This document shows, piece after piece, positions 49,331 through 64,000 of a DNA stretch of 64,000 nt. The DNA lies in assembly GCA_014905635.1 (NCBI GenBank), contig JABVCE010000010.1, forward strand, positions 868,001-932,000, given 5' to 3'. The position numbers and the translations under genes are program-made. Each line of letters starts with the position of its first letter. Within the stretch, counting starts at the first letter, position 1. The DNA comes from Scenedesmus sp. PABB004. Taxonomy: Eukaryota. The notes beneath the pieces are model-generated. The model did not search any database. It worked only from the letters and a program-made list of their open reading frames with translations, and was not told where the DNA came from.

Positions 49331-49794
49331 CCCTCTCCCGCCAGTCCGCAGAGGAGGAGGCCCCCAGGGGCCGCACGCAAAGCAGCTGGTGGGGCCGCTG
49401 CGGGCCCAGCCGGAGCGCATCATCGATGCAGGGCGCCGACCAGCACGCGCAGGCGCCCCCAGGCCCGGCCGCGGCTGGTCGTGAGCCGGACCTGCTCGGC
49501 AGCATGGCGCGCCAGCCGGCGCGCTCCACGTCCGGAGCGAGACGGCCGTGGCCGCCGAGGGTTGCTGCTGCTGCTGCAGCAGCAGCTGCAGCTGGCGCCG
49601 GCCCCAGGAGCGCCAGGAGCGCTCGTTCGGCCCGGCGCTGGGATGGAAGCCCTGCTGACGGCCCCGCATGGAGCCTTTCTCCCGACGTTCTGCTGCGGCT
49701 CCGGCCGAAGCGGGGCCCCATCCCCATGGGCCCGGAGCTGAGGCCGGGCGGCCAGCGCACGGTCGTTCTCTCCCTGGGGCGGGCCACCCAGCCT

Positions 49795-49925
49795 TTTTTT
49801 TTTTGTTTGTTACAACGGGTGACCAGACAAGGACCGAGGCCCAGGGGCAGCCCATTGAAAAAAACTCCAACGGGAAGAGCGCAGCAACCCCTCGTGAAAA
49901 ACCGCGCCCCGGCGCCCCCGAGAGG
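49795..49925 (-). mobile_element. 5'-truncated L1 3' end with poly(A), 14-bp TSD
   Basis: TSD gggccacccagcct at 49781-49794 and 49926-49939. Confidence 0.92.
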
Positions 49926-50021
49926 GGGCCACCCAGCCTGCCGGCAGCACTGCGCAGCAGCAGGCGGCGAGCCGGGCGGAGGAGTACGAGGCCAGCCTCG
50001 CGCAGCTCGACCAGCTGCTGC

Positions 50022-50089
50022 AATGGGCTGCCCCTGGGCTTCGGTCCTTGTCTGGTCACCCATTGTAACAAAAACAAAACAAAAAAAAA
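50022..50089 (+). mobile_element. 5'-truncated L1 3' end with poly(A), 12-bp TSD
   Basis: TSD accagctgctgc at 50010-50021 and 50090-50101. Confidence 0.92.
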
Positions 50090-50114
50090 ACCAGCTGCTG
50101 CTGTCGCCCAGTGA

Positions 50115-52828
50115 GAGGTCGGCCCGGCGGCCGCGCCGCGCCGCGCCGCGGGCCGCGCGCCGCCGCGCGCGCGCGCTCGGCGGCGCCGCGGCGCGGCGCT
50201 GCCGGGCGCCGTTTCCCCTGCCCCGCCGCCCCTGCGGAGCGGAGGTGCGGGGCTCCAACGTGCTGCCCCGCCACGCGCTGCGCCGCCGAGGTGGGCCGCC
50301 GGCGGCCGCGCCGCGCCGCGGGCCGCGCGCCGCCCGCGCGCGCGCCGCTCGGGGGCGCCGCGGCGCGGCGCTGCCGGGCGCCGTTTCCCCTGCCCCGCCG
50401 CCCCTGCGGAGCGGAGGTGCGGGGCTCCAACGTGCTGCCCCGCCACGCGCTGCGCCGCCGAGGTCGGCCGCCAGCGGCCGCGCCGCGCCGCGGGCCGCGC
50501 GCCGCCCGCGCGCGCGCCGCTCGGGGCGCCGCGGCGCGGCGCTGCCGGGCGCCGTTTCCCCTGCCCCGCCGCCCCTGCGGAGCGGAGGTGCGGGGCTCCA
50601 ACGTGCTGCCCCGCCACGCGCTGCGCCGCCGAGGTGGGCCGCCGGCGGCCGCGCCGCGCCGCGGGCCGCGCGCCGCCCGCGCGCGCGCGCTCGGGGGCGC
50701 CGCGGCGCGGCGCTGCCGGGCGCCGTTCCCCTGCCCCGCCGCCCCTGCGGAGCGGAGGTGCGGGGCTCCAACGTGCTGCCCCGCCACGCGCTGCGCCGCC
50801 GAGGTCGGCCGCCGGCGGCCGCGCCGCGCCGCGGGCCGCGCGCCGCCCGCGCGCGCGCCGCTCGGCGGCGCCGCGGCGCGGCGCTGCCGGGCGCCGTTTC
50901 CCCTGCCCCGCCGCCCCTGCGGAGCGGAGGTGCGGGGCTCCAACGTGCTGCCCCGCCACGCGCTGCGCCGCCGAGGTCGGCCGCCGGCGGCCGCGCCGCG
51001 CCGCGGGCCGCGCGCCGCCCGCGCGCGCGCCGCTCGGCGGCGCCGCGGCGCGGCGCTGCCGGGCGCCGTTTCCCCTGCCCCGCCGCCCCTGCGGAGCGGA
51101 GGTGCGGGGCTCCAACGTGCTGCCCCGCCACGCGCTGCGCCGCCGAGGTCGGCCGCCGGCGGCCGCGCCGCGCCGCGGGCCGCGCGCCGCCCGCCGCGCG
51201 CGCGCTCGGGGCGCCGCGGCGCGGCGCTGCCGGGCGCCGTTTCCCCTGCCCCGCCGCCCCTGCGGAGCGGAGGTGCGGGGCTCCAACGTGCTGCCCCGCC
51301 ACGCGCTGCGCCGCCGAGGTGGGCCGCCGGCGGCCGCGCCGCGCCGCGGGCCGCGCGCGCGCCCGCGCGCGCCGCTCGGGGGCGCCGCGGCGCGGCGCTG
51401 CCGGGCGCCGTTTCCCCTGCCCCGCCGCCCCTGCGGAGCGGAGGTGCGGGGCTCCAACGTGCTGCCCCGCCACGCGCTGCGCCGCCGAGGTCGGCCGCCG
51501 GCGGCCGCGCCGCGCCGCGGCCGCGCGCCGCCCGCGCGCGCGCCGCTCGGCGGCGCCGCGGCGCGGCGCTGCCGGGCGCCGTTTCCCCTGCCCCGCCGCC
51601 CCTGCGGAGCGGAGGTGCGGGGCTCCAACGTGCTGCCCCGCCACGCGCTGCGCCGCCGAGGTCGGCCGCCGGCGGCCGCGCCGCGCCGCGGGCCGCGCGC
51701 CGCCCGCGCGCGCGCCGCTCGGCGGCGCCGCGGCGCGGCGCTGCCGGGCGCCGTTTCCCCTGCCCCGCCGCCCCTGCGGAGCGGAGGTGCGGGGCTCCAA
51801 CGTGCTGCCCCGCCACGCGCTGCGCCGCCGAGGTCGGCCGCCGGCGGCCGCGCCGCGCCGCGGGCCGCGCGCCGCGCCGCGCGCGCGCCGCTCGGCGGCG
51901 CCGCGGCGCGGCGCTGCCGGGCGCCGTTTCCCCTGCCCCGCCGCCCCTGCGGAGCGGAGGTGCGGGGCTCCAACGTGCTGCCCCGCCACGCGCTGCGCCG
52001 CCGAGGTCGGCCGCCGGCGGCCGCGCCGCGCCGCGGGCCGCGCGCCGCCCGCGCGCGCGCCGCTCGGGGGCGCCGCGGCGCGGCGCTGCCGGGCGCCGTT
52101 TCCCCTGCCCCGCCGCCCCTGCGGAGCGGAGGTGCGGGGCTCCAACGTGCTGCCCCGCCACGCGCTGCGCCGCCGAGGTCGGCCGCCGGCGGCCGCGCCG
52201 CGCCGCGGGCCGCGCGCCGCCCGCGCGCGCGCCGCTCGGCGGCGCCGCGGCGCGGCGCTGCCGGGCGCCGTTTCCCCTGCCCCGCCGCCCCTGCGGAGCG
52301 GAGGTGCGGGGCTCCAACGTGCTGCCCCGCCACGCGCTGCGCCGCCGAGGTCGGCCGCCGGCGGCCGCGCCGCGCCGCGGGCCGCGCGCCGCCCGGCGCG
52401 CGCGCCGCTCGGGGGCGCCGCGGCGCGGCGCTGCCGGGCGCCGTTTCCCCTGCCCCGCCGCCCCTGCGGAGCGGAGGTGCGGGGCTCCAACGTGCTGCCC
52501 CGCCACGCGCTGCGCCGCCGAGGTCGGCCGCCGGCGGCCGCGCCGCGCCGCGGGCCGCGCGCCGCCCGCGCGCGCGCCGCTCGGGGCGCCGCGGCGCGGC
52601 GCTGCCGGGCGCCGTTTCCCCTGCCCCGCCGCCCCTGCGGAGCGGAGGTGCGGGGCTCCAACGTGCTGCCCCGCCACGCGCTGCGCCGCCGAGGTCGGCC
52701 GCCGGCGGCCGCGCCGCGCCGCGGGCCGCGCGCCGCGCGCGCGCGCCGCTCGGCGGCGCCGCGGCGCGGCGCTGCCGGGCGCCGTTTCCCCTGCCCCGCC
52801 GCCCCTGCGGGAGCGGAGGTGCGGGGCT
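50115..52828. repeat. Tandem satellite array, ~172-bp monomer, about 16 copies
   Basis: The marker gtttcccctg recurs at 50211, 50383, 50554, 50725 (variant gttcccctg), 50896, 51068, 51239, 51410, 51581, 51753, 51926, 52098, 52270, 52443, 52614 and 52784 (spacing 170-173). Confidence 0.97.
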
Positions 52829-52830
52829 TT

Positions 52831-53256
52831 CCGGCGTGGTTGGCGGCTGCACGCGCTCCGTGCGCGGCGGCCGGCGTGCTGCCTGCCCGGTGGGGCGGCT
52901 TCTCATCGGTGCGCGGCTTTCTCAGGGGTTTTTGCAGCACAGCCAACTGCTGCCCCTGGTGTGTGCGTGTGTCGTCGCGCGGCGGGGGGCTGATGCCGCT
53001 GAGGCCGGCCCCTGCCGCCGCCAGCGTGGATGGCGTTTGCGCGTGATCTCTGCGCGGAGGCTTGGAGCCGGTGCACCTCGCTGCACCGATGCCCGGTGCG
53101 GCTCGCCGCACCGGAAGGGGGGTGTGCGGCCTGATCTGCTGCTGCCCTTTGGTTGCGGGCATCACCTGGTCTCCTTGGGGCGCCCGTTGGGCGTTGGCCT
53201 CTGGCTGTGCCGTTGGGTGATGTGTGGGCCCCCTCTCGGGGGGCGCCGGGGCGCGG
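52831..53256 (+). mobile_element. L1 3'UTR fragment abutting the satellite, interrupted at its T5 tract
   Basis: Reverse complement of about 53374-53803; ends at gcgcgg|tttt, where the antisense copy's tail begins. Confidence 0.9.
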
Positions 53257-53995
53257 TTTTTTTTTTTTTTTTTTTTTTGTTACAATGGGTGACCAGACAA
53301 GGACCGAGGCCCAGGGGCAGCCCACTGAAAAAAAAACTCCAACGGGAAGAGCGCAGCAACCCCTCGTGAAAAACCGCGCCCCGGCGCCCCCCGAGAGGGG
53401 GCCCACACATCACCCAACGGCACAGCCAGAGGCCAACGCCCAACGGGCGCCCAAGGAGACCAGGTGATGCCCCGCAACCAAAGGGGCAGCAGCAGATCAG
53501 GCCGCACACCCCCCTTCCGGTGCGGCGAGCCGCACCGGGCATCGGTGCAGCGAGGTGCACCGGCTCCAAGCCTCCGCGCAGAGATCACGCGCAAACGCCA
53601 TCCACGCTGGCGGCGGCAGGGGCCGGCCTCAGCGGCATCAGCCCCCGCGCCGCGCGACGACACACGCACACACCAGGGGCAGCAGTTGGCTGTGCTGCAA
53701 AAACCCCTGAGAAAGCCGCGCACCGATGAGAAAGCCGCCCCACCGGGCAGGCAGCACGCCCGGCCGCCGCGCACGGAGCGCGTGCAGCCGCCAACCACGC
53801 CGGCGGCGCCAGGGGCCGTCCCATCGGCTGCAGCCCCCTCGCCGCGCGACGACAAACACGCAGACACCAGCCCCGCGGCACGGGCGGACACCGCCCAACC
53901 TTGCACGCTGCAGAAGAGGCGCGACACGCAACCAGCCGGGGTCGCAGCAAGCCCGGCCGCGGACCCCCCCGGCCCCTGCAGCTAGCCGCCGCGCT

Positions 53996-54029
<34 letters not shown>

Positions 54030-55499
54030 GGGGTCCTGCGCCGCCGGCGGGGCCAGCGCCGGCGCCGCCGGCAGCGCCGGCACGCCCGCTGCGGTGAGCC
54101 GGAACTCCATTGTGAAGCGGCCCCCGTGCTGGCCCGTGCGCGCGATGACCCCTCGGTGGCACCACCGGCGTTCGAAATCTGCCTGAGCGAGCTCCTTGCC
54201 GGAGCCCGACAGCCAGGAGCGCGGCACGCCCGCCAGCGCGCGCACGTCCATCGCTGCCTTGCGCCAGTCCAGCATGACTGCGTCGCGCACCGAGTACACA
54301 AAGATGCGAACCGCCGCCACAGGCGCGTGCCCGGGCTGGCCGCGCCGTGCCGCGCCGCGCGCGGCGAGCAGGGCGCGCAGCAGCAGCAGGCGGAGGTGCG
54401 TCCAGAGCTGCTGCAGCTCCGGCGCGACGCCCGACCTGGCAAAGTCGTCCGCCAGCATCACCCTGGGCGGGGGCGGCGCGCGCGGGAAGCCCGGCTGCAG
54501 CCGCGCCCAGAGGTGAGCAAACCACTGCAGCACCGCCGCCGCCACGGGGCATCCGCCGAGGACGTGGCCGAGCGTCTCCAGCGGCGGCTGCTGCTGCGCG
54601 CGGCAGAGCGGGTGCGGGCACGCCAGCTCCGCCAGCTCCGGCGCCGCGCGCTGGTAAGAGAAGACCCTGTCGCCGCTGACGCGCACCCCGCCGTGCAGCA
54701 GGCTCCAGCCAAAGTGTCGCAGGGCGCGCGGCATGCGCGCCTGCTGCGCGCGCGCGCGTAGCAGGCGGCCCAGGCGGGCGGCTCCGCGCGCTCGCCGGCG
54801 CGCGGCGGCGCAGTCGCACCAGTGAGCGGGTCGACGAGGTCGTTGGCCGCCGGCTCCTGAACCAGGGTCCTGCGCTGCTCCAGCTGCTGCTCCCGCCGCT
54901 GCTCATGCTCCTCGCGCCGCGCCGCGGCGGCAGCGGCCGCCGCCGGCCCGACGCGCTCCATGACGTGGCGCCGCGGGGGCGAGACTTTCTGCCACGCCGG
55001 CAGCCCAGGCTCCGGGTCTGGCGTCTCGGCTCGCTGCCGCTCCGCCCAGCTGCGCTTCTGGCCCGCCTCCCGCCGCGCGATGGCGCTGGCCGGGCATGCC
55101 TGGCCGTAGCCGGCGCGCCAGAGGCCCGGCACGCAGCCAACGCCGGGCGTCCAGCCCCCTGCCGGCGTGACCTCGCGCGCGCAGCGCAGCTGCAGCAGCC
55201 GCAGGGTCGCGCCGCGCACCGTAAACTGCATGACCGTGGCCGCGTGCCCGAGCCCCCACACGGAGGGGTCGACGCGGACGTCAGGCCAGAAGCCCACGAG
55301 GAACCATCGCCGCGCCCTGCTGTGCAGCTCCGGCTGCTCCGCCGGCGCCGCTGCCCCGGGCGCTCCGGCCGCCGCGCGCTGCGCGCCCGCCGCTGGCCGC
55401 GGCGCCTGCGCCGCGTCCACCACGCAGCAGTCCTCCCACCCCCCGCCGCGACTATCTCGGGCGGGGGCTCGGCGGTGCGGAGCCTGCTGTCAGGCCCCA
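53257..55499 (-). mobile_element. 3' part of the L1 LINE: ORF2 C-terminus (CCHC/zf-RVT-like), ~700-bp 3'UTR and poly(A)
   Basis: LRHFGWSLLHG..CPHPLC..ETLGHVLGGCP..LWTHLRL; stop at 53982-53984; T-run at 53257-53278. Confidence 0.92.
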
Positions 55500-56473
55500 A
55501 CATGCTGCCCGACACCCCCGCTCCGCACGCACGCGCACGCACGCACGCACGCACGCTCACTGCCCCGGGCGGCAGCAGCAGCGGCAGCGCGCGCTCGGTC
55601 GCGGCAGGCCGCGCAGGGCTGGCCGGAGCGGTTCGGGAGCCTCTGGGGAGCTTGTTGCTGGTGCGGGGGTGCAGGGCGGGGCCTGGCCGACTTGGACGGG
55701 AAGCATCGATGCGGCAGGCTGCTGGCCGCAGCGTGCAGGCGCCCGCGGGCCTGCCCGCGGCCCAGTTTGGCCGCGGGGCGGGCTTTCTGGGCGCGGGGGC
55801 CCGCCGGCCGGTGCAGCCCGGCCTTTGGCGCGCCCCCCGGGCGACCGGGCAGCAGCGGGCGGCCCGCGCTGGCCCGTGGGGCGCGGGGGCCCTGTCGGCC
55901 GCCCGGAGGGGGCCGTTGCGGGCCCCTCGGGCCCCGTCTGGCTCCTGCCCCCGCCCGGCTGCTGCGGGACCGGCCGCAGCGGGCGCCCATCCCCATGGCG
56001 CCGGCTCTCGGGCCGGGCGGCGACCGGCGCGCGGTCGTGCTCTCGCTGGGGCAGGCCGTGCAGCCTTCCGGCCGCACGACGCGCCAGCGGGAGGCGAGCC
56101 GCGCCGCGCACTTCCAGGCGGGCGTGCGCGGCGTCGCGCAGCTCGGGCAGCTGCTGGTGCAGGGCGGGCAGCCGCTCCCCTGGGCGGCCGGCTACACCAC
56201 GTGCGACCGCGACGGGCAGCGCACCCCCGGGGCCACCGTCGCGATCGCGGTCAAGCCGGACGAGCAGTCGCGCGCGGCGGCTGCGGTCGCCGCCGCGGGC
56301 GTGCTGCAGCTCGGCGGCTGCGCGGTGCCGGCGGCATGGGGCAGGACGGCCGCGCCGGCCGGCACCGTCAAGGTGCTGGTGCAGGGGCTGCCGGAGGACC
56401 TGTGGGAGCGCGGCCAGGGCGTCATGGCCGCCCTGCTGGTCGCCGCGGGTTACGGCCCTGACCTCGCGGTGTC

Positions 56474-56639
56474 TTTTTTTTTTTTTTTTGTTACAATGGG
56501 TGACCAAACAAGGACCGAGGCCCAGGGGCAGCCCACTGAAAAAAACTCCAACGGGAAGAGCGCAGCAACCCCTCGTGAAAAACCGCGCCCCGGCGCCCCC
56601 CGAGAGGGGGCACACACATCACCCAACGGCACAGCCAGA
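56474..56639 (-). mobile_element. 5'-truncated L1 3' end nested in ORF1, 14-bp TSD
   Basis: TSD gacctcgcggtgtc at 56460-56473 and 56640-56653. Confidence 0.95.
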
Positions 56640-57163
56640 GACCTCGCGGTGTCCGAGCACTGGGGCTGCAGCAGCGCGTTCGGCGACGCGCCGGCGGCGC
56701 TGCCCTGCGCGGACACGCTCGTCGCGTACGTGCGGACGCCGCCGGGCGAGCCCATGCTCAGCCGCCTGCCAGACGACTTTGTGTCCGACGGCCGGCGCGT
56801 GCGCGTCTACGTCGCCGGCCGCGCGGCCGGCGAGTGGCGCGGCTGGCGTGCGAGCGAGCAGACCTACGAGCGGGCGCTGGCGCGGCTGGAGGCGGACGCG
56901 GAGGGGGCCGAGGCTGCGCCGCAGCGTGCGCAGGCCCGCGCGCCCGCGCCCCCCGTGGCGCCGCCGCCCGCGCAGGGCGTGCCGGGCGCAGGTGCGGCGC
57001 GCGCTGGCGGCGCGCGAGCCGGCGGCGCGGCGCGGGCGGCCGCGGGCGAGGCGGCCAGGGGCCGCCCCGCGGCGATGGAGCAGGGTCAGCAGCGGCAGCA
57101 GCAGCGGCAGCCGCAGGACCTGCCCGGCGGCGGTGCCGGCGACGCGGCGACAAGGATCGGGCC

Positions 57164-57908
57164 CGCCTGGGCCGCCTGCTACGCGCGAGCGCAGCAGGCG
57201 CGCATGCCGCGCGCCCTGCGACACTTTGGCTGGAGCCTGCTGCACGGCGGGGTGCGCGTCAGCGGCGACAGGGTCTTCTCTTACCAGCGCGCGGCGCCGG
57301 AGCTGGCGGAGCTGGCGTGCCCGCACCCGCTCTGCCGCGCGCAGCAGCAGCCGCCGCTGGAGACGCTCGGCCACGTCCTCGGCGGCTGCCCCGTGGCGGC
57401 GGCGGTGCTGCAGTGGTTTGCTCACCTCTGGGCGCGGCTGCAGCCGGGCTTCCCGCGCGCGCCGCCCCCGCCCAGGGTGATGCTGGCGGACGACTTTGCC
57501 AGGTCGGGCGTCGCGCCGGAGCTGCAGCAGCTCTGGACGCACCTCCGCCTGCTGCTGCTGCGCGCCCTGCTCGCCGCGCGCGCGCGGCACGGCGGCGGCC
57601 AGCCCGGGCACGCGCCTGTGGCGGCGATTCGCATCTTTGTGTACTCGGTGCGCGACGCAGTCGTGCTGGACTGGCGCAAGGCAGCGATGGACGTGCGCGC
57701 GCTGGCGGGCGTGCCGCGCTCCTGGCTGTCGGGCTCCGGCAAGGAGCTCACTCAGGCAGATTTCGAACGCCGGTGGTGCCACCGAGGGGTCATCGCGCGC
57801 ACGGGCCAGCACGGGGGCCGCTTCACAATGGAGTTCCGGCTCACCGCAGCGGGCGTGCCGGCGCTGCCGGCGGCGCCGGCGCTGGCCCCGCCGGCGGCGC
57901 AGGACCCC

Positions 57909-57939
<31 letters not shown>

Positions 57940-58543
57940 AGCGCGGCGGCTAGCTGCAGGGGCCGGGGGAGTTTTTTTCAGTGGGCTGCCCCTGGGCCTC
58001 GGTCCTTGTTTGGTCACCCATTGTAACAAAAAAAAAAAAAAAAAAAAGGGGCCGGGGGGTCCGCGGCCGGGCTTGCTGCGACCCCGGCTGGCTGCGTGTC
58101 GCGCCTCTTCTGCAGCGTGCAAGGTTGGGCGGTGTCCGCCCGTGCCGCGGGGCTGGTGTCTGCGTGTCGGTCGTCGCGCGGCGCGGGGGCTGATGCCGCT
58201 GAGGCCGGCCCCTGCCGCCGCCGGCGTGGATGGCGTTTGCGCGTGATCTCTGCGCGGAGGCTTGGAGCCGGTGCACCTCGCTGCACCGATGCCCGGTGCG
58301 GCTCGCCGCACCGGAAGGGGGGTGTGCGGCCTGATCTGCTGCTGCCCCTTTGATTGCGGGGCATCACCTGGTCTCCTTGGGCGCCCGTTGGGCGTTGGCC
58401 TCTGGCTGTGCCGTTGGGTGATGTGTGTGCCCCCTCTCGGGGGGCGCCGGGGCGCGGTTTTTCACGAGGGGTTGCTGCGCTCTTCCCGTTGGAGCTTTTT
58501 TCAATGGGCTGCCCATGGGCCTCGGTCCTTGTCTGGTCACCCA

Positions 58544-58573
<30 letters not shown>
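57164..58573 (+). mobile_element. 1.4-kb 5'-truncated L1 nested in ORF1, 14-bp TSD
   Basis: TSD acaaggatcgggcc at 57150-57163 and 58574-58587; the empty site is seen in the ORF1 copy near 63690 (- strand). Confidence 0.95.
57970..58046 (+). mobile_element. 77-bp L1 3' end nested in the 3'UTR of the nested copy, ~12-bp TSD
   Basis: TSD aggggccggggg at 57958-57969 and 58047-58058; the empty site is in the copy near 53970. Confidence 0.92.
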
Positions 58574-58574
<1 letters not shown>

Positions 58575-59790
58575 CAAGGATCGGGCCGGCGGCGATGGAG
58601 CTGGACGAGCGGCCGCGTCGGAGCCCGCGGCAGCGGCGGCCGGCGACGCAGCTGCCCGGCGCCGGGACGATGCCCGGCGGGTGCGACCCGATGCAGGTGG
58701 ACGCAGACGGCGGCGGTGGGGAGCAGCCCGCTGGCAGCCCGCCGCCCGACGGCGAGGGGCGCAGCGGCGCGGCGCGGGCCAACGCGGCGCGCGCCAGCGC
58801 GGGGCGCGGCGCGGCGCGCGGCGCGCGGCGCGGCGCCCCGCGCGGCGAGCAGCGCACCGCAGGGGGCAGCACGGCACGCAGCACCGCGTTCCGGGCCTGG
58901 TGTGACGGGCCGGACACGGACGACCTGATCGCTGCGGCCAGGAGCGCCTGCGAGGAATGGGGCGGCGGCGACCTGGGCGGCAGCGACTGCGAGCGGCTGC
59001 GCGAGGAGTACTGGGCGGCCATGCGACAGAGCCTGCCGGACCCCGTCGGCGGTGCGTGCGCCTGGCCCGCGCGGCGCGCGTGGCTGCGCCGCCGTTTCGG
59101 CCTGCCGCCAGACGCAGGGTACGGCACGGACGACGAGGGCGGGCCTGGGCCCGGTGCCGCCGCGGCGGCGCGCGCCGAGGCCGGGCCGGCTGTGGCGGCG
59201 CAGTCGGCGGCGGCGGAGGCGGCAGCGGCGGCGGCGGGGGCCGAGGCCAGCCCCGCGGCAGCGCGCCCGGCCCGCTGGTGCCGGACGGCAGCCGACGCCG
59301 CGCCGCCGCCGGCGGCGGCGCGCGCCCCCGCGGCACGCCCGCGCAGCGTGCCGCGGCAGCAGGGCGGCGCTGGCGCGTCAGCGGCGGCGGCAGGCGACGC
59401 CGCGGAGAGCTCCGGCCACCCGGCGCGGCGGCACGGCGGTGCGAGCGGGCTGGCGGCGGCGGCGCGCGCCGCCGCGGAGCGCTCGCGCAGCGCGTCGCGC
59501 CGGCGCGCGAGCGCCGGCGCGCCGGTGGCGGCGCGCTCGCGCAGCCCGGACTGGTGCGGCGGCGCGCGCGCGCCGGCGGCGGCGGCGAGCGCGGCCGCAG
59601 CGCGCGCGCGCAGCGCGCCGGGGCAGCGGGGCAACGAGGTCGCCGCGGAGGCCGCCGCGGGCGGCCCGAGGCGCTCACAGCGGCCGGGGCTGGGCACCTG
59701 GAGCGAGGCGAACCGCGGCTTCGCCCCCGGCTGGCAGGCGGGCGAGTCGCCCGCGAGCCCGCGGCGGCGCCGCGGGCAGCCGCAGTAGCC

Positions 59791-62700
59791 ATGTCGCGCG
59801 CGAGCGCGGCCTGGGGGGGGCTCAAGGTGGTGGCCGTCAACGTGAACGGCCTCAACCACAAGCCCAGCCGACAGGCGTTCTTCGCCTGGCTCCTGGCCTC
59901 CCGCTACCACGTGGTCGTCCTCACAGAGACGCACGCGCAGGGCGACGGCCAGGCCCGCAGGCGCCGAGTATCGAGTACTGCGACACTGTAGGTAGGCTGC
60001 TGCGCGTGGGCTGGCGCACGCAGCATGGCGACCGCCTCTCGGTGCTGGGCGTTTACGCGCCGTCCGAGCGGGCAGAGCGCCCTGCGTTCTTCGCGGGGCC
60101 GTACCAGGAGGCCCTCCTGGCAGGGCCGGCGGGCGCGCTGCTGCTGGCGGGCGGCGACTTCAACTGCGTCGTCTCGCCGGCTGACGTCCAGCCCCTGCCG
60201 GGGCAGGCGGCGGCGCGGTCTGGCAGATGCCACGGCGGCGCGGACCTCGCCCGCGCCAACGCGGCGGCGGGCGTCGTCGACGCGCTGCTGCGCGTGGCGC
60301 CGCAGCTCCGCGCGCAGCCCACGCACTACCAGCGGCGCGACGGGGCGGTGCACGGTGGCCGCATCGACGCGTGGTTTGTGGCGCAGGAGCTCGCCGACCA
60401 CTGGCTGGTCGGTGCGGCGCACCACCCGCTGTGCCACAGCGACCACAGGCCGGTCAGCGTCAGCCTGCAGCGGCCGGGACAGCCGCTGGCTGGGCGGCGA
60501 CGCTGGACGTTCCCCAACGACCTGCTCGCCTGCGCCAGCCGCCGGGCCGAGCTCCGCGACCGTGTAGCAGCTGCCGCGCGGCAGCTGCGGGACGCAGGGC
60601 TGGACCCGGGCGAGCTGTTTGAGCAGCTCAAACAGAGTGTGCGGCGCATCGCGGCGGAGCTGCGTGCGGAGATGCGGCAGCAGGAGCAGCAGGAGCTCCA
60701 CCAGCTGCGGCACGCGCTGCGCGCAGCGCGCTGGGCGGCAGGCAGCCAGCAGTACGGCTGCCCCGAGGCCGCCGCTAACGCCCTCGCCGCAGAGCGGGCG
60801 CTCGCCGCGGCGGAGGCGGCGCAGCGGCGGCAGCAGGCGGACGCTCTGGAGGCGGTATGGGACGAGTGCGGCGAGGGGCCCAGCCGCTGGTTCCACCGCC
60901 TGGGCCGCGCGCCGGGCGGCGCGCAGCCAATTCACGCGCTCGCCCGCCCGGGCCAGCCCGCCGTGCCGCTTACCTCCAGGGCAGGCATCCAGGAGGGCGG
61001 CCGCATCATCGCCGACTTCTTCGACGCGGACGTGCCGGGCGGCATGTTCGGCGTCCGGCCGACCGACCAGCAACAGCAGGACTGCATGCTGGACGCGCTG
61101 GACCGGCAGCTCTCGGCAACCGAGCAGCGGGCCTGCCGCGGGCAGGACCCCGAGGGGCTGCTCACGTTCGCCGAGGCGACGGCGGCGCTGGCCAGCCTAC
61201 CGCGCGGCGCGGCGCCGGCAGCGACGGCCTCACCTGCGAGGCCTACGCGGCCCTGTGGGAGGTGCTGGGCGAGCCGCTCGTCCAAGCCTTCAACTATCAC
61301 TACCTCAACCAGGCAGCCGGCGCGCCGCAGCTCGCGGCGACGCAGCGGCTCGGGCTCATCACGCTGATCCACAAGGGCGGCCAGCCGCGCGAGGCGGTCA
61401 GCAGCTACCGCCCCATCACGCTGCTCAACACAGACACCAAGATCGCAGCCAAGGCCATCGTGCAGCGGCTCGCGCCCGCGCTCGGCTCCATCGTCGACTG
61501 CACGCAGACGGCGTTTGTGCCGGGCCGGGACATCGCCGACAACGTGCTCATGCACCTGGAGGCGATCGACCACGCGCGCGAGACGCGCGCGCCGGGCTGC
61601 CTGCTGTTCCTCGACTTTGCCAAGGCCTACGACCGCCTCGACCGCGGCTGGCTGTTCAGGTGCCTCGCGCGCATGGGCCTGCCCGACGCAACCACGCGCT
61701 GGGTCCGCCTGCTGCTCGCAGGCACGCGGGCGCGCGTCGCCTTCAACGGCGGCCATGTCAGCCGCGAGTTCAGCGTGGCGTCGGGCTGCGCGCAGGGCAG
61801 CCCGCTCAGCCCGCTGCTGTATGTGCTGGCGGCGCAGCCGCTGGCGGCCATGTGCCGGCGCGTGCAGCGGCAGCCCGGCTTTGCCAGCCTGCAGCTGCCC
61901 GGCGGCGCAGGGCCGGCGCCCTGCTGCCACCAGCACGCAGACGACACCACCCTGCACGCAGCGTCAGTGGAGAGCGCCAAGCGGCTGCTGGACGGCGCCG
62001 TCGCGCCGTTCTGCCTGGCCAGCGGCGCGCAGCTCAACCTGGCCAAGTGCAAGGGCATGCTGCTGGGCGACCACCCGGCGCTGCAGCTGCAGCCGGATGG
62101 CAGCGGGCAGCTGGTCGAGTGCAGCACGGGCGTGTGCTTCCCGGACACAGAGCAGGCGCCGATCAGGCACCTGGGCGTGCTGCTCTCTGCCACCGGCGTC
62201 GAGCGGCACGCGGCGCAGCTTTACCGCGAGCGGCTGCGCACCATCACCTGCCGCATCGCGCACTGGTCGCGGTACGCGCTCACGCGCCCGGGCCGCCGGC
62301 ACGTTGCGCGCCAGGTGCTCGCGGCCTGCGTGGGCTGGCACGCGCAGTTTGTGCCGGTGCCGGCCGACCTCCTGCGCCTCATCCAGCGGCGCGTCACCGC
62401 CTACATCGTCGGCAACTGGTGCATCCGCGAGAGCGACAACCGCATTATCAGGCAGGTTCCGCGGGCGGCCATCGCGTGCCTGCCCGCGAGCATGGGCGGC
62501 GAGGCGCAGGTCGACGTCGCGGCCTTCACCACGGCAATGCTGGCCAAGACGGCCGCCAGGCTGCTGCACCCGGTGGGGGCGGCCTGGAAGCCACCCGCGG
62601 CGGCGCGCTTCGCGCGCGCGCTGCCTGGCCGGGGCACCGCCGCCCTCGTGCAGGGCACCGCGCTGGAGCTGCGGGCGCAGCTGCCGTGGCGGTGGGGCGC

Positions 62701-63171
62701 GATCGCCTGCGCGTTTGCGGCTCTCGGCGTGCACCGGGTGATCCCCCACGGCAGCATGACCGTGGAGCAGATCAGGGTGGAGGCCCTGGTGGGCAACTGC
62801 AGCGTCGGCGCGGCCCTGGGCGGCGCGCGCATCGCGTCGCTCGAGGACCTGCCCGCGGAGCTGCGCAGCGACAGCCTCGGGCAGGCGGCGCCGCGCCTGC
62901 CGTGGCGGCCGGCCGCCGACGGCGTCGTCATGCCGGGTGAGTGGCAGCAGGCGCTCGCGCGCAGCGGGCCGAGCGCGCCGGGTTGGCAGGCGCTGCGGCC
63001 CAGCGCGGCGCCGCCGTCGCCGGGCGGCGGCGTGGTGCAGCAGCCCCAGCAGCCGCTGGCGGCGCTGCCGGTGGAGCAGCCGCCGCAGCCGCCGCCGCCG
63101 CCGCCCGCCGTGCGGTGGGTACGGCGGTGGGCGCTGGGCGCGGCAGCGGCGAGCTTCTTCGAGGTGGGGCC
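59791..63171 (+). pseudogene. L1 ORF2: AP endonuclease plus reverse transcriptase, disrupted
   Basis: APE: VAVNVNGL, LTETH, VYAP, GGDFN, RID, SDH. RT: GSDGL, YRPITLLNTDTK, QTAFVPGRDIADN, LDFAKAYDR, GCAQGSPLSPLL, HADD, HLGV. Apparent deletion and frameshift near 59960, frameshift near 61215. Confidence 0.93.
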
Positions 63172-64000
63172 TTTTTTTTTTTTTTTTTTTTTGTTACAAT
63201 GGGTGACCAAACAAGGACCGAGGCCCAGGGGCAGCCCACTGAAAAAAACTCCAACGGGAAGAGCGCAGCAACCCCTCGTGAAAAACCGCGCCCCGGCGCC
63301 CCCCGAGAGGGGGCACACACATCACCCAACGGCACAGCCAGAGGCCAACGCCCAACGGGCGCCCAAGGAGACCAGGTGATGCCCCGCAATCAAAGGGGCA
63401 GCAGCAGATCAGGCCGCACACCCCCCTTCCGGTGCGGCGAGCCGCACCGGGCATCGGCGCAGCGAGGTGCACCGGCTCCAAGCCTCCGCGCAGAGACCAC
63501 GCGCAAACGCCATCCACGCTGGCGGCGGCAGGGGCCGGCCTCAGCGGCATCAGCCCCCGCGCCTCGCGACGACACACGCACACACCAGGGGGCAGCAGTT
63601 GGCTTTGCTGCAAAAACCCCTGAGAAAGCCGCGCACCGATGAGAAAGCCGCCCCACCGGGGCGGCTTTCTCAGCTCCATCGCCGCCGGCCCGATCCTTGT
63701 CGCCGCGTCGCCGGCACCGCCGCCGGGCAGGTCCTGCGGCTGCCGCTGCTGCTGCCGCTGCTGACCCTGCTCCATCGCCGCGGGGCGGCCCCTGGCCGCC
63801 TCGCCCGCGGCCGCCCGCGCCGCGCCGCCGGCTCGCGCGCCGCCAGCGCGCGCCGCACCTGCGCCCGGCACGCCCTGCGCGGGCGGCGGCGCCACGGGGG
63901 GCGCGGGCGCGCGGGCCTGCGCACGCTGCGGCGCAGCCTCGGCCCCCTCCGCGTCCGCCTCCAGCCGCGCCAGCGCCCGCTCGTAGGTCTGCTCGCTCGC
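63172..64000 (-). mobile_element. Antisense L1 copy: poly(A) plus ~490 bp of 3'UTR joined directly to ORF1 sequence; continues off the window
   Basis: T-run from 63172 and 3'UTR to about 63660; 63674-64000 is the reverse complement of ORF1 (..GDAATRIGPAAME). Confidence 0.92.

Follow-up and report, generated by a model that had tools for sequence, protein, structure and literature searches.

A probable Zepp-like nest of LINE copies in the alga Scenedesmus sp. PABB004

Why should many copies of one LINE lie crowded at one end of a stretch of algal DNA that is otherwise filled with ordinary genes? The question is raised by a window of 64,000 nt from Scenedesmus sp. PABB004 (contig JABVCE010000010.1, positions 868,001 to 932,000; coordinates below count from the window's first letter), whose G+C content is approximately 78%. 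Ordinary host genes fill the first 49 kb, where a scan of 113 open reading frames (ORFs) yielded seven Pfam families above the cut-off, none of them from a transposable element. Eight copies with the 3' part of a single LINE family are found in the remainder, from 49.4 kb onward. The segment from 49421 to 64000 is approximately 80% LINE and 19% satellite, and the cluster, which is cut by the window's end, measures at least 14.6 kb.

A first-pass annotation of the same DNA had counted eight such 3'-end copies in less than 15 kb, seven of them with poly(A), and had seen none in the preceding 49 kb. Both statements hold. With up to three mismatches allowed, the element's terminal 28-mer occurs seven times in the window, always within 49810-63221, where shuffles lead one to expect 0.00 occurrences, and a tailless copy completes the eight. 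Positions 1-49000 contain no LINE copy by BLASTN or by TBLASTN with ORF2 proteins, and no LINE homology was found upstream of 49421. Under uniform placement, simple arithmetic that ignores selection gives P ~3e-5 for finding seven of seven termini in the final ~22% of the window.

The LINE has repeatedly inserted into its own older copies and into those of a diverged sister element. We read the locus, with a probability of roughly 0.7, as the margin of a LINE nest of the Zepp type, in a scenedesmacean alga of very high G+C content, built by self-insertion together with homing to the region or its chromatin. This would be a new lineage instance of the already known Zepp pattern rather than a new mechanism. 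Nested clusters of mostly 5'-truncated copies are described for Zepp and ZeppL in PMC8226300, PMC3446292 and PMC9940879, and insertion of Zepp into existing copies is a published mechanism (Higashiyama 1997, as cited in PMC8226300).

The element and its relatives

Judged by its encoded proteins, the element is an L1-type LINE of the L1 clade, as had been proposed. The reverse transcriptase (RT) of ORF2 matches RVT_1 (PF00078) with an E value of 1.3e-28, and among the clades with solved structures its best relative is human L1 ORF2p (~1e-19), with R2 at 6e-8. The AP endonuclease in the window is a remnant with a ~38-aa deletion and a frameshift whose Exo_endo_phos match (E 0.03) lies below the cut-off. 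The same region is 40-59% identical to that of a relative, P0007, in which the domain is recognized clearly (PF03372, 1.3e-14). The estimated element size is ~8 kb, including a 3'UTR of ~620 bp and a poly(A) tail. A Cys/His motif, CPHPLC...H....C, can be read directly at the C-terminus of ORF2, which is colinear with the end of the Chlamydomonas reinhardtii protein P0122 (27% identity over 186 aa, E 5e-9, same CPHPxC start).

ORF1 has no Pfam match. A ~185-aa domain within it is conserved in relatives, likewise ahead of ORF2; about 20 of 79 loci gave HMM matches, and no ORF1 homolog was found outside its own cluster. A structural model from a 14-row alignment has pLDDT values of 67-93 over residues 80-215. 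All 50 of the VIA-align matches listed for it are RRM-type RNA-binding domains or RRM-containing chains, at middling Z scores of 5.5-6.5 (<8), and its best Foldseek matches are tandem RRMs (E 7e-4). This model suggests that ORF1 carries an RRM-like, predicted RNA-binding domain. Atlas scores for ORF1 reach at most 0.84, and P0229, a public gene model from the cluster, gave a pLDDT of 40 when folded alone. No chromatin-reader domain was seen in the folded portions, which end before the C-terminal ~400 aa of ORF1 and before the part of ORF2 downstream of the RT.

Paralogous proteins are encoded on four PABB004 contigs (1269, 796, 784 and 87 kb). Beyond this strain, metagenome contigs from three studies reproduce segments of the LINE at 99% identity or more. 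The matching sequencing runs are freshwater, sludge or unspecified metagenomes, with shares of at most 0.22 and no RNA run among the matches listed. An exact scan for the terminal LINE motif gave no hit in metagenome contigs or in genome contigs. Metagenome relatives are themselves clustered: six of the eight loci of at least 10 kb hold at least two separate ORF2 fragments, and seven of the eight hold multiple fragments when C-terminal matches are counted. LINE fragments also surround the more distant relatives in metagenome contigs.

In C. reinhardtii the window's RT finds its best matches (37-40% identity, E down to 4e-58) in a family of nearly identical RT genes that occur on chromosomes 3, 4, 5, 6, 7, 8, 9, 12, 14 and 16 as well as three unplaced scaffolds. 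A literature search with the identifiers of these genes returned nothing relevant. From chromosomal distribution only, we infer that the family is ZeppL-1_cRei, whose published ORF distribution, as given in PMC9940879, fits these sites.

Nested copies and their target sites

The left edge of the cluster belongs to a diverged, older sister element on the forward strand, whose 5' part, comprising the 5'UTR and the beginning of ORF1, is present (49421-50114). It aligns with 55704-56159 of the large element described below, at 76% over 139 bp by BLASTN, and a longer local alignment was also obtained. The sister is cut off by the satellite and hosts two inserts. Insert #1 (49794-49930, reverse strand) consists of the terminal ~135 bp of the LINE and an 11-A tail. 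Its 12-bp target site duplication (TSD; 49782-49793 and 49927-49938) reads GGCTGGGTGGCC in element orientation, and 4 nt of it are microhomology with the element's 5' end at the junction. Insert #2 (50021-50090, forward strand) is the last ~70 bp with poly(A), flanked by an 11-12 bp TSD, (A)CCAGCTGCTG(C).

Beyond the satellite, copy #3 (52831-53261, forward strand) is a 3'UTR fragment that is 5'-truncated against the satellite. It stops in the T5 run of the UTR, without the last ~110 bp and the tail, and is 98.6% identical to 53369-53803 in inverted orientation and 96.8% identical to 58153-58462. That T5 run is the priming site of copy #4 (53258-55480, reverse strand, 5' end approximate), which comprises the C-terminal third of ORF2, the 3'UTR and a ~21-A tail and is frameshifted by a 2-bp GC expansion near 54752-54763. 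Copy #4 is taken to reach past 55334 because the conserved W...CVV motif of its relatives is still present near 55440.

The remainder of the cluster is dominated by one large element (55704-63171, forward strand) that was probably once full-length. Its ORF1 (55995-59788) is an open reading frame after removal of the inserts. ORF2 (59791-63171) includes the damaged endonuclease, two frameshifts in all and the RT, and is cut at 63171 by copy #8. An overlap between this end of ORF2 and the start of copy #4 was considered, but the alignment was not above shuffles; a stretch of ORF2 is thus missing from the window.

Three inserts lie within the large element. Insert #5 (56474-56639, reverse strand) is the last 150 bp with a 16-A tail and a 14-bp TSD, GACACCGCGAGGTC (56460-56473 and 56640-56653), and is 99.4% identical to copy #8. 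Insert #6 (57164-58573, forward strand) carries the ORF2 C-terminus, the 3'UTR and a ~27-A tail between copies of a 14-bp TSD, ACAAGGATCGGGCC (57150-57163 and 58574-58587), and is 98.4% identical to 53963-54779. Insert #7 (57970-58047, forward strand), the last ~57 bp with a 20-A tail, has an 11-bp TSD, GGGGCCGGGGG (57959-57969 and 58048-58058), and is 100% identical to 56474-56549; these last three identities are from BLASTN. Insert #7 sits within #6, and #6 within ORF1 of the large element, so that nesting is three deep, as the first-pass annotation had read it. Finally, copy #8 (63172-64000, reverse strand, running off the window) is an internally deleted element with a 21-A tail, in which the 5' part of ORF1 (63661-64000) is fused without a gap to the final 489 bp of the 3'UTR. 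BLASTN puts the identity of 63684-64000 to 56850-57166 at 99.7% and that of 63172-63660 to 53258-53747 at 98%. P0229 reads through the deletion junction.

The five clean TSDs measure 11-14 bp, a slightly wider range than the 12-14 bp first reported, and all five TSD-bearing inserts sit in LINE sequence, in ORF1 or UTR of the same element or its sister. The TSDs and their flanks share no obvious common sequence, again in agreement with the earlier reading; the five nick sites show a C-R|R pattern, noticed post hoc (n=5). Targeting of A/T runs was rejected as the cause of self-insertion, since a T5 run occurs only at #4 and the five TSD sites are GC-rich.

Paralogous empty sites exist for three of the five TSD-bearing inserts. 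The target of #6 is intact in the ORF1 copy at 63661-64000, that of #7 in copy #4 (53963-53990), and that of #5 in P0229, the protein of the copy that runs off the window. Three sequence variants can be told apart among the copies. Variant CAAT/GTC occurs in #1, #2 and #6, CAGT/GTC in #4, and CAGT/GTT in #5, #7 and #8, the youngest copies, which are 99-100% alike (BLASTN). This order agrees with the nesting order: young #7 lies in old #6, and old #1 (92-96% identical to other copies) and #2 lie in the most diverged host. The seven tailed copies have tails of 10-27 A and seven different 5' ends. Poly(A) tails, TSDs, variable 5' truncation, empty sites and the match of variant order with nesting order are together the marks of repeated insertion by target-primed reverse transcription. 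TSDs are absent at copies #3/#4 and #8, where target deletion, internal deletion or rearrangement is needed. The TSD junctions rest on a single assembly, since none of the metagenome pieces among the matches listed bridges one.

A 172-bp satellite inside the cluster

Within the LINE cluster lies a satellite that had gone unmentioned in the first-pass annotation (50115-52828; TRF: 172-bp unit, 15.8 copies, 98% matches). Its G+C content is about 87% (0.869 in 50001-52000). Derivation of the satellite from ORF1 or ORF2 of the LINE was rejected, as scores stayed within the range of dinucleotide shuffles and the likeness is one of composition only. Likewise, 55335-55560 is not a significant match as a diverged monomer (score 56 against a shuffle mean of 53); only a ~45-nt piece, 55471-55520, resembles the monomer around the satellite break. 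An exact scan of genome contigs for the satellite gave no matches.

The satellite meets copy #3 after ...GGGGCT (52828). In a contig from run X2, a freshwater metagenome, the same monomer position is joined to another point of the LINE, one equivalent to 55334 and lying on the opposite strand, although the shorter side of this joint is 43 letters and it may be the same locus rearranged. The monomer position shared by both joints may point to some sequence preference. It is conceivable, if quite doubtful, that satellite and LINE together are this alga's centromere repeat and that the LINE enters the satellite at a preferred monomer position, after ...GGGGCT. Such an element would unite a landing pad specific to one satellite site with nesting in its own copies regardless of sequence, a hybrid of Tx1-like site specificity and regional homing of the Zepp kind; the only centromere described for the alga's order in the literature found is Copia-based.

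Competing explanations and known systems

The element has copied itself by target-primed reverse transcription into older copies. On the preferred reading, new copies would land preferentially in or beside existing ones, to judge from this one window. What guides homing would be the region or its chromatin rather than a fixed target sequence, and the LINE cluster and the adjoining satellite may grow as a gene-free, possibly centromeric domain. Against targeted integration, a single window with a gene-dense left flank also fits loss of insertions elsewhere. Integration might be random, with selection clearing insertions from a gene-dense genome and a gene-free repeat patch tolerating them. The presence of at least seven host gene families within the 45 kb directly left of the cluster, the five TSDs without a shared target, and the enlargement of the cluster as a target by each insertion all suit this account. 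Yet the youngest copies, #5, #7 and #8, left selection little time, and each of the three has landed in LINE sequence; three levels of nesting fit into 15 kb; in other organisms, too, relatives lie among LINE fragments; and PMC8226300 describes ZeppL as essentially absent outside its own clusters in Chlamydomonas. We consider retention in a tolerant patch unlikely.

The Tx1 group comprises sequence-specific L1 elements with a fixed target, and close paralogs of the window's proteins carry the name "transposon TX1 protein". Were the element of this kind, its real home might be the satellite, for example one position of the 172-bp monomer, as the two joints at 52828 could indicate. That name is only NCBI's automatic product name, however, and the sites of the five TSD-bearing inserts, all in ORF1 or UTR of the LINE, are unrelated in sequence, only one insertion is present across 15.8 monomers, and tRNA and Rfam searches found no tRNA, snRNA or other RNA-gene target in the window; together with the possible rearrangement behind the X2 joint, this makes a sequence-level landing site improbable. 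Still less probable is an origin of the copies mainly in segmental duplication, inversion or assembly error within the repeat. The 431-bp inverted repeat (52831-53261 and 53369-53803, 98.6%, with a 107-bp loop), the near identity of 56850-57166 and 63684-64000, and the differing 52828/55334 join in a metagenome contig would be expected under it. Five inserts, however, each have their own TSD, 5' truncation point and tail length, three have empty sites, and the metagenome contigs from three studies reproduce LINE segments.

The Zepp/ZeppL trait of nested self-insertion with a 3'-end-rich cluster is found in the window. As in published accounts of Zepp in Chlorella vulgaris and Coccomyxa subellipsoidea C-169, copies here are nested and mostly 5'-truncated, which upholds the earlier description of a Zepp-like island (PMC8226300); Coccomyxa clusters are reported as 1.5-42 kb (PMC3446292). 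The likeness to Zepp is drawn from published descriptions. Zepp hosts are Trebouxiophyceae, whereas this host belongs to the Scenedesmaceae within the Chlorophyceae, and the satellite here is inside the cluster; PMC9940879 reports satellites flanking some ZeppL clusters. The inferred ZeppL-1_cRei counterpart has an ORF2 colinear with that of the window to the very C-terminus and a similar size (an 8334-bp insertion is described on chromosome 2, compared with ~8 kb here), but RT identity is only about 37-40%. Association with CENH3 is published for ZeppL. Chromochloris zofingiensis, of the same order as Scenedesmus, likewise has a TE-built, gene-poor domain, although its centromere repeat is LTR/Copia rather than an L1 LINE; it is the only alga of the Sphaeropleales with centromere repeats described in the literature found.

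Craig et al. call it important to search newly contiguous chlorophyte genomes, and the question behind such searches is whether centromeres built from LINEs are an ancestral trait or arose by repeated recruitment. With a Zepp-like nest in Scenedesmaceae there would be a second chlorophycean lineage, one that shares its order with Chromochloris, an alga whose centromeres are Copia-based. If the cluster is centromeric, this order would hold both LINE and Copia types. The suggestion that the instance is undescribed is plausible in that no literature linking ZeppL or centromeric LINEs to Scenedesmus was found, although the proteins are already in NCBI. Young near-identical copies and LINE pieces of at least 99% identity in wild freshwater metagenomes suggest recent activity, so that tests for de novo insertion would be feasible. 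The public gene models P0229 and P0232 are chimeras of LINE fragments, and such models should be masked.

Organization of the LINE cluster

By our own count, the DNA from 49421 to 64000 is about 80% LINE and 19% satellite, and it includes eight copies (#1 to #8) of the 3' part of one L1-type LINE. The cluster opens with the 5' part of an older, diverged sister element (49421-50114, forward strand), which matches the large element of the cluster at 76% over 139 bp by BLASTN and holds two short 3'-end inserts, #1 on the reverse strand and #2 on the forward strand. A satellite occupies 50115-52828 (15.8 units of 172 bp, 98% matches), and it is followed by a forward-strand 3'UTR fragment, #3 (52831-53261), and by #4 (53258 to about 55480, reverse strand), which comprises the ORF2 C-terminus, the 3'UTR, and a tail. 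After a spacer of about 220 bp to which no element is assigned comes the large element (55704-63171, forward strand), with ORF1 and a damaged ORF2. It carries #5 on the reverse strand and both #6 and #7 on the forward strand. Copy #8 (63172-64000, reverse strand), an internally deleted element, truncates the large ORF2 and extends beyond the end of the window.

The G+C content is 72-87% along the whole length of the window. Host genes in window 1-49000 have roughly 78-84% G+C and are rich in long triplet runs of the GCN/CAG type (repeat families D2-D13), and stop-free frames are so common there that ORF length is uninformative. Bases 1-49500 contain 191 stop-to-stop ORFs of at least 180 aa, and a domain scan of 113 of them recovered ordinary host domains to the left of the cluster (L7Ae, amino-acid transporter, multicopper oxidase, SPRING1, PCRF, Nckap1, and SNAPC3), with HAUS1 scoring under the cut-off. 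None of these 113 ORFs yielded a transposable element domain. No tRNA or Rfam family was found within or near the LINE cluster.

Repeated insertion into resident LINE sequence

The first-pass annotation had proposed that LINE 3' ends are confined to the cluster. A search with the terminal 28-mer (up to three mismatches) bears this out, as its seven occurrences all fall in 49810-63221 and shuffled sequences are expected to give none. Clean target-site duplications (TSDs) had been claimed for five inserts, and five were indeed found, at 11-14 bp. All five inserts also proved to sit in LINE sequence as described, with #1 and #2 within the sister element, #5 and #6 within the large element, and #7 within #6, such that nesting reaches three deep. 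The target sequences vary among the five, in keeping with the proposed lack of a shared TSD consensus.

Uninterrupted paralogous sites exist for #6 (at 63661-64000), for #7 (in #4), and for #5 (in P0229, a public protein model on LINE sequence). When #5 and #6 are excised, ORF1 of the large element is open and in frame by frame arithmetic, an observation that carries little weight at 80% G+C. The copies also fall into variant classes, namely CAAT/GTC (#1, #2, and #6), CAGT/GTC (#4), and CAGT/GTT (#5, #7, and #8, which are mutually 99-100% alike). These classes agree with the nesting order, with young #7 inside old #6, and old #1 and #2 inside the most diverged host. Such agreement is as expected from successive waves of retrotransposition, and not from block duplication. 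The cluster thus records repeated target-primed reverse transcription into LINE sequence that was already there.

LINE sequence borders the satellite on both sides. The satellite has a G+C content of about 87% and a unit length not divisible by 3, and it resembles the LINE in composition alone. To its right lies a 431-bp inverted repeat (98.6%, 52831-53803), with #3 as one arm, the 3'UTR of #4 as the other, and the terminus of #4 as the 107-bp loop. Copy #3 is without its last ~110 bp and tail. In the simplest reading, #4 would have been primed at the T5 run of #3, with a target deletion of about 135 bp. A contig from a freshwater metagenome run (X2) joins the satellite end at 52828 to the LINE equivalent of 55334 on opposite strands, a join that is absent from the window, where #4 itself extends beyond 55334. 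The join arose either when a LINE inserted independently at this monomer position or when the cluster locus was rearranged. A contig from another metagenome run (X1) ends at 55337. The spacer between #4 and the large element includes a (CACG)n microsatellite at 55528-55560, and the segment immediately preceding it (55471-55520) resembles the part of the satellite that surrounds the break point.

Relatives and the origin of clustering

In Chlamydomonas reinhardtii, the best reverse transcriptase (RT) matches (37-40% identity) are to a single family of near-identical RT genes, which are closely grouped on chromosomes 3, 4, 5, 6, 7, 8, 9, 12, 14, and 16 as well as on scaffolds 21, 25, and 27. This family is probably ZeppL-1_cRei, the LINE of C. 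reinhardtii centromeres. In JGI metagenome contigs, a profile scan revealed relatives at 79 loci, with at most 56% identity. Six of the eight loci of at least 10 kb have at least two distinct fragments of ORF2, which often occupy both strands, and the count rises to seven of the eight when C-terminal matches are included, in a sample that was picked for containing RT, includes two near-duplicates (L024 and L025), and comes from assemblies that break at repeats. At one locus (L069:710-13770, 48% RT identity), two copies in head-to-tail order, spaced 7863 bp apart, follow a 5'-truncated third. Clustering thus appears to characterize the wider LINE group.

Integration is probably biased toward the existing cluster or its chromatin. 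Selection alone is a live rival explanation for the cluster, because host genes abut it. Causation in the reverse direction is raised in a Chlamydomonas preprint, according to which ZeppL sequence might itself recruit CENH3. Nested self-insertion by Zepp and centromeric ZeppL clusters have already been published, as excerpts of the reports describe (PMC8226300, PMC3446292, PMC9940879). Among the literature matches listed, there was no relevant report on a Scenedesmus centromere, LINE, or retrotransposon, nothing on Scenedesmus in the ZeppL literature, and, judged by title, nothing on repeats under the strain name; no description of the PABB004 LINE family was found in these three sets. We file the PABB004 nest as a new lineage instance of the published Zepp/ZeppL-type nesting.

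Proteins encoded by the element

The RT of ORF2 matches RVT_1 at 1.3e-28, and its best solved relative is human L1 ORF2p (~1e-19, versus 6e-8 for R2). The large-element RT is 88% and 84% identical to two Scenedesmus sp. PABB004 entries named “transposon TX1 protein.” The N-terminal endonuclease, which aligns with PF03372-bearing relatives, is damaged in the large element; a deletion of ~38 aa is located at window 59934-59973. The X1 and X2 contigs match the window up to this deletion site (59959) and then continue into unlike sequence, and therefore other copies appear to be without the deletion. The ORF2 C-terminus carries a CPHPLC...H....C motif and aligns colinearly with the C-terminal 186 residues of P0122, a C. 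reinhardtii RT-family protein (E 5e-9). A (GC)n run at 54752-54763 is 2 bp longer in #4 than in #6, which shifts the ORF2 frame of #4.

ORF1 has no match in Pfam, and a search with it recovers only its own protein cluster, among whose members are a PABB004 protein and two proteins marked as encoded on the window's own contig. About 20 of the 79 metagenome loci share a conserved domain of ~185 aa encoded upstream of ORF2. Residues 80-215 were modeled with pLDDT values of 67-93 from a 14-row alignment. All 50 rows listed by VIA-align are RRM-type RNA-binding domains or RRM-containing chains (Z 5.5-6.5), and the best Foldseek matches are tandem RRMs (E 7e-4). With moderate confidence, the ORF1 product fits a predicted RNA-binding protein. 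Imperfect 72/144-bp tandem repeats (59296-59591, 70-76% matches) lie within the stretch that codes for its Ala/Arg-rich C-terminal half.

Two public gene models consist of LINE debris. P0232 (window 55995-58573) splices out #5 but retains the duplicated “DLAV,” and it continues from ORF1 into #6, and P0229 (window 63172-64000 and beyond) reads across the internal deletion of #8.
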